DNA from: Stx2-converting phage Stx2a_1447
Direction: 5' to 3' (one strand)
Length of the DNA: 57,034 nucleotides
Sequence record: AP012536
The stretch's first letter is position 1. Each line of letters begins with the position of its first letter. Of the stretch, positions 9,001 through 12,000 are shown one piece after another. Position numbers: made by a program.

Positions 9001-12000
9001 AGGGTGAGTGCTGGCCCAGCTACCAGCATATTGCTGACCAGTGCGAGATTAGCAAACGTTCTGTGATGAATCATATTGCGGCCCTTTGTGAGTCCGGGCT
9101 GGTAAAAAAAGTCCCCCGGAAAGGTGAAAAAGGTAACTCAAGTAATATCTATCTCCTTCATCTTGATGGGGCAGGAGATTCACTAGGGAGTAGTGCAAAT
9201 AATTCACTATCTGGTGCAGCAAATTCACCAGGTAGTGCAGGAGTTGCACCAGGGGGTAGTGCAGGAGATTCACCCAGAACCAGTCACTCTTTTGAACCAG
9301 TCAAAGAACCAGTCAATGAACCAATAGCTGTTGGTGCATCTGCTGATGAGTCTGTGCGAGTTCGTTCAAACCGACCGGAATACTCTCCGGAGTTTGAGCA
9401 GGCATGGCTGGCATATCCCAAACGTGCTGGTGGCAATTCAAAATCTGCAGCCTTCAAAGCCTGGAAAGCCCGTTTGAATGAGGGGGTAAACCCCGAAACC
9501 ATGCTGGAAGGTGTGAAACGCTACGCGGGCTGGGTATCTGCGATGGGTAACAGCGGCACACAATTTGTGAAACAGGCTGTCACGTTCTTTGGTCCGGATC
9601 GTCATTTCGAAGAATCCTGGGAAGTTCCTGCGGTATCTGTAGCCGGACGTGAGGACCCGTACTTCAAAGCCAGTTACGACAACGTGGACTACAGCCAGAT
9701 CCCGGCAGGATTCAGGGGGTGATCATGAGTCTTTTGAATGACGTTCAGAAATTCATTGAAGCCCATCCGGGGTGTACTTCCGGAGACATTGCGGATGCTT
9801 TTGCAGGTTACTCACGGCAGCGCGTTCTGCAGTCAGCAAGCAAGTTACGTCAGAGCGGGCGTGTGGCTCACCGTTGTGAAGGAGATACACGCAGACATTT
9901 CCCGCGCCTGACTGAGAGAGCGCAGGAACCGGAACCACAACCAGTTCGAGAAACCAGACCTGTGCGCAATTTCTATGTCGGCACTAACGATCCACGGGTG
10001 ATTTTGTGCCTGACCCGCCAGGCGGAAGAACTGGAGTCCAGGGGCTTATACCGTCGTGCTGCAACGGTGTGGATGGCGGCATTCCGTGAAAGCCACTCCC
10101 AGCAAGAGCGAAACAATTTTCTGGCGCGTCGTGAGCGGTGCTTACGGAAAAGCAGCAAGCGCGCTGCATCGGGTGAAGAGTGGTATCTGTCAGGGAATTA
10201 CGTGGGGGCTTAATGAGTAATAAATATTGCCAGGCGCTGGTGGAACTGCGGAACAAACCAGCCCATGAACTGAAGGAAGTGGGCGATCAGTGGCGCACGC
10301 CGGACAACATTTTCTGGGGAATTAACACCCTGTTTGGCCCGTTTGTTCTGGATCTGTTCACTGACGGTGATAACGCCAAATGTGCCGCGTATTACACGGC
10401 GGAAGACAACGCGCTGGCGCATGACTGGTCAGAACGTCTTGCGGAGCTTAAAGGTGCTGCCTTTGGTAATCCCCCATACAGCCGCGCCAGTCAGCATGAG
10501 GGGCAATACATCACCGGCATGCGTTACATCATGAAGCATGCCAGTGCCATGCGTGATAAAGGCGGGCGCTATGTTTTCCTGATTAAAGCTGCCACCAGCG
10601 AAGTGTGGTGGCCGGAAGATGCAGATCATATTGCTTTTATTCGCGGGCGTATTGGTTTTGAACTGCCTGTCTGGTTTATCCCGAAAGACGAGAAGCAGGT
10701 ACCGACAGGCGCTTTCTTCGCTGGTGCTATTGCTGTTTTCGACAAGACCTGGAAGGGACCGGCAATCAGCTACATCGGGCGCGATGAACTTGAGGCATGT
10801 GGTGAGGCCTTTCTGGCGCAGGTTCGCCAGCAGGCGGAAAAACTGGTCAGGGAGATGGCGGCATGACGACGTTAACTCAATGCCAGCAGCAGGTGCTGGA
10901 TATGCTGATTTCTTACCAGAAAGAGCGTGGCTTTCCGCCAACCAATCAGGAGGTGGCAACCATGCTGGGATATCGTTCAGTGAATGCAGCGGTGGAGCAT
11001 CTTCGCGCACTGGAGAAAAAAGGCGTCATCACGATAAAGCGTGGTGTGGCCCGGGGGATAACGCTTCATACCGCGGTGAAGGACGACGACAGCGAGGCGG
11101 TCGGGATTATCCGCTCACTGCTTGCCGGTGAGGAAAACGCCAGGCTGCGTGCAGCCCACTGGTTACATGAGAGGGGTCTGAAAGTATGAAGCTGATTCTG
11201 CCTTTCCCGCCCAGCGTGAACACGTACTGGCGACACCCCAACAAAGGGGCGTTTGCAGGTAAGAGCCTGATAAGCGCGGCGGGGCGCAAATTCCAGAGCG
11301 CGGCGTGTGCAGCAATAGTTGAGCAGTTACGTCGTCTGCCAAAACCAACGTCGGCACCTGCTTCAGTGGAGATCGTGTTGTTTCCTCCGGATAACCGGAT
11401 CCGCGATCTGGACAACTATAACAAGGCGCTGTTTGACGCCCTGACCCACGCGGGTGTGTGGGAAGACGACAGTCAGGTGAAAAGAATGCTGGTGGAGTGG
11501 GGACCGGTTATCCCGGAAGGGAAGGTCGAGATCACTATCAGTAAGTACGAGAAAACGGCGGGTGCAGCCGCCTGATTAAGAGGAGAAACGAAGTATGAAT
11601 AATCTGATGGTCATTGATGGTATTGAAGTTCGTCGTGATGCTTATGGTCGTTACAGCCTGAACGATCTGCACAGGGCTGCCGGTTCTCTGGATAAGCATA
11701 AGCCTGCATTCTGGCTCCGCAATGAGCAAACTGAGCGTTTAATAAGCGAGTTGCAGATTTGCAACTCGGTCAATATAGAGCCAGTTAACGTTATTCGTGG
11801 CGGAAATAACCAGGGGACGTATGTCTGCAAAGAACTGGTGTATGCCTATGCAATGTGGATCAGCCCGTCATTCCATCTGAAGGTGATCCGTACTTTCGAC
11901 ATGGTAACCAGCGCACCGGAAAAATTATCCGGACAGGCTGCTGACAAGATGCAGGCTGGTGTGATTCTGCTGGACTTTATGCGCCGGGAGTTAAATCTGT

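Follow-up and report, generated by a model that had tools for sequence, protein, structure and literature searches.

PerC of enteropathogenic Escherichia coli (EPEC) and PchA, PchB and PchC of enterohaemorrhagic E. coli (EHEC) activate LEE1 of the LEE (locus of enterocyte effacement) (PMC5931665). They are basic, helical, single-domain proteins of 89–104 amino acids (aa) that reside on mobile elements, and Pch has no known DNA-binding domain and relieves silencing by H-NS, StpA and Hha (PMC4764244). Other mobile-element members of the family are divergent, namely PchD (on SpLE1), PchE (on the PICI-like element Sp7; PICI, phage-inducible chromosomal island) and PerC-like proteins of PICIs including EcCIMP1_025, and their effect on the LEE is absent, weak or repressive (PMC5931665, PMC11773190). 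Members of the ANR (AraC negative regulator) family, among them Aar of enteroaggregative E. coli and Rnr, have a single domain of ~60 aa and occur together with a gene for a cognate regulator of the AraC family (PMC4983702); ANRs bind AraC-family activators and affect H-NS (PMC4983702, PMC10148876). Here we describe the yfdN gene of Stx2-converting phage Stx2a_1447 (AP012536), the whole analysed stretch of 57,034 nucleotides being referred to as the window. Its product, YfdN, is by sequence comparison a distant PerC-family relative that is homologous only to the N-terminal core of PerC and Pch (~55 residues). The gene and its annotation are already known; what our analysis adds is that the core homology is limited and is common to the ANR anti-activators, that a two-domain architecture is conserved, and that the gene holds a fixed position beside a replication initiator gene.

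A sequence-only reading of the window had placed a PerC/Pch-like regulator gene at positions 9719–10213. An open reading frame (ORF) is present there on the + strand, with a product of 164 aa if translation starts at GTG 9719 and of 162 aa if it starts at ATG 9725, and the segments that had been quoted from the protein are exact (LESRGLYRRAATVW is residues 103–116 and ERCLRK is residues 137–142, in ATG numbering). The ORF is yfdN, a known prophage gene that has already been annotated. Across window positions 9000–11200 there is 100% identity to the chromosome of strain PV15-279 (E. coli O157:H7), where RefSeq names the matching coding sequence (CDS) "yfdN: PerC family transcriptional regulator" (WP_001358752.1) and where the gene lies within the Stx2-carrying prophage in mlrA/yehV. 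The protein is identical at 160 of 164 positions (98%) to its orthologue in K-12 (b2357, cryptic prophage CPS-53), which has the same neighbours, the initiator remnant yfdO upstream and the Dam remnant yfdM downstream. Whereas these K-12 flanks are truncated and the prophage is defective, the window has an intact operon within an Stx2-carrying prophage. The label of K-12 YfdN remains 'uncharacterized protein', and the gene has been referred to in the literature as "the K12 unique PerC homologue" (PMC5931665).

Identity to YfdN is 97–99% for proteins of Stx2c-converting phages, SfV, mEp460 and others, about 92–96% for SfII and SfIV, and about 75% for Salmonella ST64B. Near-identical YfdN clusters have thousands of members in the databases, almost all of them named "PerC family transcriptional regulator", and 2729 of 5426 complete E. 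coli genomes contain part of the 2.2 kb around yfdN. yfdN is a conserved early gene of a widespread lambdoid prophage group that takes in the yehV/mlrA Stx2c type of O157:H7, SfV, mEp460, ST64B and K-12 CPS-53. Translation probably starts at ATG 9725 (CDS 9725–10213, stop codon TAA at 10211–10213) and not at GTG 9719, the start given by RefSeq and the sequence-only reading, because the Shine-Dalgarno sequence AGGGGG (9714–9719, within the last codons of the initiator gene) overlaps that GTG and because all distant relatives begin with MSL or MSI at the equivalent ATG. The depositors of Stx2a_WGPS2 also placed the start at 9725, and distant loci likewise combine a corresponding G-rich sequence with an ATGA-type overlap at the start of the yfdN-like gene.

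We compared YfdN with PerC from pMAR2 of EPEC E2348/69 and with PchA, PchD and PchE from O157:H7 Sakai. The Pfam PerC model (PF06069) matched YfdN with an E-value of 2.2e-9 and 37.9 bits, above its curated gathering cut-off of 22.6 bits, and aligned residues 98–149 with model positions 5–56 of 90; the C-terminal half of YfdN alone scored 39.8 bits. BLASTP aligned YfdN to EPEC PerC with 37% identity over 46 residues (E 2e-6). When a profile of 24 YfdN-type proteins of 25–48% identity was compared using hhalign with a profile built from PerC, PchA, PchD and PchE only, the two matched with a probability of 98.2% (E 6.3e-14) across 55 columns, YfdN 98–152 against PerC 6–60. A five-way alignment revealed 11 invariant columns (A100, L103, E104, G107, R110, R111, A112, W116, R129, R136 and C139 in YfdN) and a core signature common to YfdN and PerC/Pch, A..LE..G.YRRAA..W...R......R..C. 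All four tests agree with the PerC-family membership that had been proposed from the sequence, and the similarity to PerC and Pch on alignment is significant.

The similarity is also partial. The four comparators each score 124–153 bits against PF06069 and match model positions 1–89, and the contrast is equally clear for PerC/PchA-type proteins (143–149 bits) against YfdN (38 bits). In the five-way alignment YfdN is without the C-terminal ~35 residues (model positions 57–90) that PerC, PchA, PchD and PchE have in common, the third of the protein that contains the motif …MG…FR.Y, and has a different short tail in their place. Nor does it have the size of a single-domain PerC protein (~90–105 aa): its 162 aa include an added winged helix and linker. 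The full-length, single-domain PchD, PchE and PICI PerC-like proteins (124–153 bits over positions 1–89), which have no winged helix, differ from YfdN in the same way. Six-frame searches with hidden Markov models found no second PerC-like or canonical pch ORF in the window (the next best match had an E-value of 0.12).

The core of YfdN is at least as near to the ANR model as true PerC and Pch proteins are. The NCBIfam ANR model (NF033650) matched residues 96–142 with 24.3–25.0 bits (E 1–2e-5), which is below its curated cut-off of 32 bits, and its match to this region in PerC, PchA, PchD and PchE is weaker (14–18 bits). The published ANR consensus positions are A10, E14, A22, W26 and A29 (PMC4983702), and the spacing of A100, E104, A112, W116 and A119 in YfdN is exactly equal to theirs. 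The unit has three predicted alpha-helices, as in ANRs, and is of the same size (~55–60 residues). When a model of the C-terminal domain was compared with the structure predicted for a protein of 60 residues from Aeromonas phage 2_D05 (in BFVD), named "ANR family transcriptional regulator", the two superposed at 0.6 Å over 56 columns, with a TM-score of 0.91 and 27% identity. YfdN is thus linked to PerC through a small helical module that activators and anti-activators have in common. A likeness to ANRs has been noticed before in this family, by the authors of the PICI study, for a PerC-annotated PICI protein that represses LEE1 (PMC11773190).

These matches raise the alternative that YfdN is purely an anti-activator of the ANR type, whose C-terminal domain would inactivate an AraC-family regulator, H-NS or both, with the winged helix serving in oligomerisation or partner binding and with net repression of virulence genes. 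Its core outscores true PerC and Pch proteins on the ANR model, has the ANR spacing and superposes closely on the phage ANR protein, and the LEE1-repressing PICI protein offers a precedent (PMC11773190). The ANR score is nevertheless below its cut-off, whereas the PerC score is above its own. ANRs are stand-alone proteins with a cognate AraC-family gene (PMC4983702), whereas YfdN has two domains and is encoded in a phage replication module; no AraC-family gene turned up in the annotation and Pfam scans of the operon, although no search was aimed at one. Furthermore, a basic winged helix that is kept down to 25% identity is most simply a DNA-binding domain. We consider this alternative unlikely.

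We modelled YfdN with AlphaFold2 using a 19-sequence alignment. The model has two folded domains. The N-terminal domain (residues 1–62, window 9725–9910) has helices at residues 3–13, 19–25 and 31–44, a short strand after the first helix and a beta-hairpin (47–52/55–60); residues 1–60 were predicted with a local confidence score (pLDDT) of 84–92. A variable linker rich in proline and glutamate (residues 63–84, 9911–9976) is predicted to be disordered (pLDDT < 50) and has indels and low conservation in close as well as distant alignments. The three-helix core of the PerC/ANR type follows (residues 85–149, 9977–10171; the PF06069 match covers 10016–10171), with helices at 90–105, 109–122 and 126–148. 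Residues 90–148 have a pLDDT of ~90, and modelling this domain alone gave a predicted TM-score of 0.66 with a core pLDDT of 92–96. The C-terminal tail (residues 150–162, 10172–10210) bears the motif W-Y-L-S-G-N-Y-V-G and is predicted to be unstructured (pLDDT < 50); its last codons carry the Shine-Dalgarno sequence of the next gene (GGGGG, 10204–10208). Both folded domains are basic, with isoelectric points of 9.8 (N-terminal) and 11.1 (C-terminal).

No Pfam family matched the N-terminal extension. Foldseek searches against the PDB matched this domain to winged helix-turn-helix proteins of the SmtB/ArsR, MarR/MepR/SlyA, BlaI/MecI and Fur types over ~59–69 columns at 2–3 Å, with probabilities of ~1.0 and E-values of only 0.05–0.2. 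Searching PDB sequences with the family profile gave weak similarity to BlaI (E 0.0019), MarR (E 0.0021) and SlyA (E 0.0034), and the domain also matched the PHROG MarR family (E 6e-5) and NCBIfam BilQ (E 0.002, far below the BilQ cut-off). The model, the structural matches and the family profile support a confident prediction that residues 1–60 form a winged helix. The N-terminal extension noted in the sequence-only reading (~80 aa) is real, and the description given there as winged-helix-like is supported at the level of this prediction. The predicted topology is that of the MarR/SlyA, BlaI/MecI and ArsR/SmtB winged helices, but the dimerisation and ligand-binding parts of those proteins are absent from YfdN, and its DNA binding is a prediction. 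Structural neighbours of the C-terminal domain included none that resemble DNA-binding proteins; the likeness is to interaction units of the TPR and MIT type.

This two-domain protein is conserved. An exhaustive HMMER search of 1.84 billion representative sequences returned only 101 clusters, many of them fragments, and full-length two-domain relatives of 138–165 aa persist down to ~25% identity. Distant relatives keep the N-terminal MSL…FI..NPG…IA.AF, the core and the tail motif L-[AS]-G-x-[YF]-x-G. In the tail, W153, L155, G157, Y159, V160 and G161 are invariant among 19 close homologues, and G157 and G161 are still nearly invariant at 25–48% identity (consensus LAGxYxG). Both domains and a length of ~140–165 aa are kept to ~25% identity, which points to selection on the whole architecture.

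Our preferred explanation, to which we give about half of our confidence, is that YfdN serves the phage as an early regulator whose own winged helix tethers an interaction module of the PerC/ANR type to DNA. PerC and Pch themselves have no DNA-binding domain that can be recognised. In YfdN the winged helix would hold the protein on DNA, the helical module would contact other proteins, which may be the silencers H-NS, StpA and Hha or regulators of the AraC type, and YfdN would adjust the transcription of phage genes, and possibly of host genes, during early lytic development. Either activation or repression would be possible.

A contrasting explanation is that YfdN is a functional activator of the Pch type, whose production from the prophage turns on ler and LEE1 and in this way ties attaching-and-effacing virulence to the Stx prophage. 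The significant PerC similarity and the presence of all 11 invariant core residues are in keeping with this, the host carries the LEE, and Uhlich et al. removed yfdN from their K-12 ler::lacZ reporter strain as a matter of prudence (PMC5931665). We found no direct experiment on YfdN in the literature, where it appears only in over-expression screens and as that precautionary deletion. On the other side, YfdN aligns with only 52–55 of the PerC positions (~90 in all) and lacks the C-terminal third, with a score of 38 bits against 124–153. Much closer members of the family fail on ler: PchA, PchB and PchC raise its activity by a factor of 4 or more, but activation stays under 2-fold with PchE and is absent with PchD (PMC5931665). 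PchE acts as a repressor of curli and of adhesion (PMC6265319, PMC7369912). LEE1 did not respond to the PICI PerC-like proteins of EDL933 and CFT073 (PMC11773190, citing Porter 2005) and is repressed by EcCIMP1_025 (PMC11773190). yfdN is also frequent in E. coli without the LEE, K-12 among them, and in phages of Shigella and Salmonella. Finally, the gene lies in a replication module and not in a moron position, and its location differs from those of pchA (an isolated gene in the late region of Sp4, by an IS629 element), pchD (in SpLE1) and perC (after perA and perB on a plasmid).

We therefore regard activation of the Pch type as improbable. The sequence-only reading had called the protein Pch-like and had expected from this that it could modulate the LEE; as stated, this is unsupported, given that only positions 5–56 of 90 are matched and that the core is at least as near to the ANR model as true PerC and Pch proteins are. 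Published tests also show that membership of the PerC family does not predict an effect on the LEE (PMC5931665, PMC11773190). An effect of YfdN on the LEE is possible, but it would not be predictable from the sequence. Nothing here shows that YfdN switches on virulence genes of E. coli, and the proposed link of the Pch type is weakened and unproven.

A natural knockout of yfdN exists in the Stx2c prophage of O157:H7 strain 980938, which is near-identical to the one in the window and is deposited as Stx2a_WGPS2 (locus L079, AP012537.1 9725–11526, corresponding to window 9725–10213); here IS629 splits the gene after about residue 82. Strains 980938 and 981447, which both carry stx2c alone, do not differ in their poor induction of Stx2 (PMC6256406). 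This allele is uninformative as a test of phenotype, since both strains induce Stx2c poorly.

yfdN is part of the early-right operon of the phage (6734–13748, + strand), which we delimited from the RefSeq annotation of the identical region, Pfam and PHROG scans and the tight or overlapping gene junctions. The genes, all on the + strand, are in the order cro-like, cII (CP76), Rha/Ash, an ORF of 74 aa, the replication initiator, yfdN, Dam, a protein consisting of a LexA DNA-binding domain only, RusA, KilA-N, DUF968/HNH and the Q antiterminator; a cI-like repressor gene is annotated divergently (5944–6636, - strand). The initiator (8904–9722) combines an O-like N-terminal domain (HTH_36/DnaD_N) with a DnaD-like/primosomal C-terminal domain; it matched Pfam HTH_36 (E 1.8e-11), phrog_270 'replication initiation protein' (E 5.7e-88), and O-like and DnaD-like loader PHROGs. 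Downstream of yfdN lies a phage Dam N6-adenine methyltransferase gene (10213–10866; PF05869, E 1e-45, and RefSeq).

The stop codon of the initiator gene (TGA, 9720–9722) is 2 nt ahead of the yfdN ATG at 9725, and the stop codon of yfdN overlaps the dam ATG (TAATG). yfdN is thus translationally coupled to the initiator upstream and to Dam downstream. A consensus scan of the + strand from ~8400 to 11500 identified no promoter-like or terminator-like sites, although the scan's overall counts did not rise above the shuffled expectation. The early-operon location, which had also been claimed from the sequence alone, is supported by the operon structure and by the start/stop overlaps with both neighbours. 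Because it is translated from the early-right transcript, YfdN should be produced once infection or induction has occurred and should be missing from the quiescent lysogen.

To place the gene in a wider context we compared 16 IMG/VR loci with YfdN-like proteins of 25–34% identity. The YfdN-like gene directly follows the replication initiator gene in all 16, with an ATGA-type overlap (in locus L074 there are 3 nt between stop and start). The flanking genes of these loci are much better conserved (cII 50–62% identical in most loci, Dam ~80%, RusA ~65–80%, DUF968 ~65%), and the initiator and YfdN segment is far more diverged between phages than these flanks. Related phages fill the slot behind the initiator differently: 75/02 Stx has a DnaC-like loader gene there, and Stx2_EH1846 has genes for a loader and a DnaB-like helicase. 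In the cro-to-Q operon (6734–13748), annotation and Pfam scans revealed no helicase, helicase loader or primase gene.

These observations invite another explanation, that YfdN is the second component of the replication module, an analogue of lambda P and DnaC-like loaders that, together with the O-like initiator, brings the host helicase or primosome to the phage origin or organises it there; the similarity to PerC would then be only a shared helical interaction fold. The coupled position directly after the initiator in the window and in 16 of 16 distant loci, the loader or helicase genes found in this slot in related phages, the lack of such genes in this operon and the joint divergence of initiator and YfdN are all consistent with it. 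However, no similarity of YfdN to lambda P or to DnaC-type AAA+ loaders was found in Pfam, PHROGs, NCBIfam, the PDB or BFVD, and it resembles no DnaB-binding or other replication protein in sequence or fold. The DnaD-like/primosomal C-terminal domain of the initiator could recruit host factors unaided. YfdN and initiator types also assort independently, as loci L068 and L074 have the same YfdN-like type behind unrelated initiators, and relatives of the initiator occur in 294 phage records against ~55–71 for YfdN. The conserved tail of the initiator, described below, is not specific to neighbours of YfdN. We judge a role as a replication component to be quite unlikely, and regulation by a DNA-tethered PerC/ANR module remains our preferred explanation.

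Several more specific ideas about this neighbourhood were rejected. Co-evolution of YfdN with its initiator is suggested by their joint divergence but is weakened by the unrelated initiators of L068 and L074. The initiators end in a conserved tail (window 9647–9722), …F[KR]ASY..VDYS..IP[AEP]G[FW]RG followed by the stop codon, which is common to otherwise unrelated O-like initiators and is found also in L007, L008, L054, L064, L068, L074, L075 and L076. The tail is kept as a peptide despite synonymous codon changes, and its G-rich codons double as the Shine-Dalgarno sequence of the next gene. It is present whether that gene is YfdN-like, DnaC-like (75/02 Stx) or 'LygF' (689R5), and is absent from the O protein of Stx2_EH1846. 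As a docking peptide for YfdN the tail is not specific, since it also occurs before DnaC-like or LygF genes and its codons form the Shine-Dalgarno sequence; its conservation may reflect either docking or a constraint of translational coupling. 'LygF', the small protein after the initiator of phage 689R5, was rejected as a relative of YfdN (hhalign probability 1%). A Ren-like exclusion function, considered because ren is located close to the replication genes, was also rejected, with a weak PHROG match on the N-terminal domain (E 0.007) and an hhalign probability of 3% against the Ren-like protein of phage 75/02, as was membership of a defence system, for which there was only a meaningless PADLOC match (E 0.009).

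pchE resembles yfdN in lying just downstream of replication genes. In Sakai Sp7, a PICI-like element, it directly follows the genes for primase and single-stranded DNA-binding protein (locus L006, 16772–17044), which makes it a second PerC-family lineage at the end of a block of replication genes.

It is highly improbable, in our view, that yfdN is a functionless passenger, the decaying remnant of a prophage. The gene does survive beside truncated neighbours in the cryptic K-12 prophage CPS-53, many database versions are truncated, frameshifted or fused, and there is the IS629-disrupted allele. Against this, the full-length two-domain protein persists over the range of 25% to 99% identity, keeps invariant residues in each domain and has a conserved tail, and its position in intact, inducible phages is fixed and translationally coupled.

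Some database proteins are chimeras in which YfdN is joined to parts of Dam (PF05869), of an HTH_36 initiator (PF13730) or of RusA (PF05866). They presumably arise from deletions or frameshifts in prophages, and they reflect both frequent rearrangement of this short region and the propagation of domain-based names, for example in a 'RusA family' protein that is mostly YfdN.

Other genes of the window also deserve mention. The LexA-related gene (10863–11189) encodes a protein of 108 aa that consists of the LexA DNA-binding domain only (PF01726, E 3e-19; phrog_362 'transcriptional repressor') and has no peptidase domain. It lies two genes 3' of yfdN in all related loci, with ~42–51% identity, and its product could compete with or mimic LexA. 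The 'Rha family' protein of 383 aa (7535–8686) has an Ash domain (aa 117–213) and a Rha domain (aa 223–308). Because distant related loci have only an Ash/Rha-like protein of ~110 aa in this position, the gene appears to be a fusion or an expansion peculiar to this group of phages. The stx2 A and B ORFs (17368–18327 and 18339–18608) are followed by an iraM-like anti-adapter gene (18906–19229, - strand). PV15-279 has a copy of IS1203 between stxB and iraM that is absent from the window, and its downstream ORFs are shifted by ~1.3 kb; the window therefore does not derive from that very record, despite the full identity over 9000–11200.

The position of yfdN allows a broader and more speculative proposal, namely that YfdN-type proteins are an unrecognised class of replication-module partner, in which a winged helix and a PerC/ANR module fill the 'helicase-loader slot' of lambdoid phages that have no P, DnaC or DnaB homologue. 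We regard this as a long shot. If it were true, YfdN could couple origin firing to the removal of nucleoid silencers or to the recruitment of host replication factors, and the PerC and Pch regulators of EPEC and EHEC would derive by domestication from pieces of a phage protein associated with replication.

The pipeline label "PerC family transcriptional regulator" calls for caution, as it invites the inference that Stx prophages with yfdN boost expression of the LEE. That inference is not licensed, because the homology is to a ~55-residue core common to PerC activators and ANR anti-activators, because the architecture and genomic position differ, and because closer members of the family differ in the sign of their effect. 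YfdN could instead be a convenient entry to the poorly understood PerC/ANR fold, because here the fold is attached to a recognisable, predicted DNA-binding domain.

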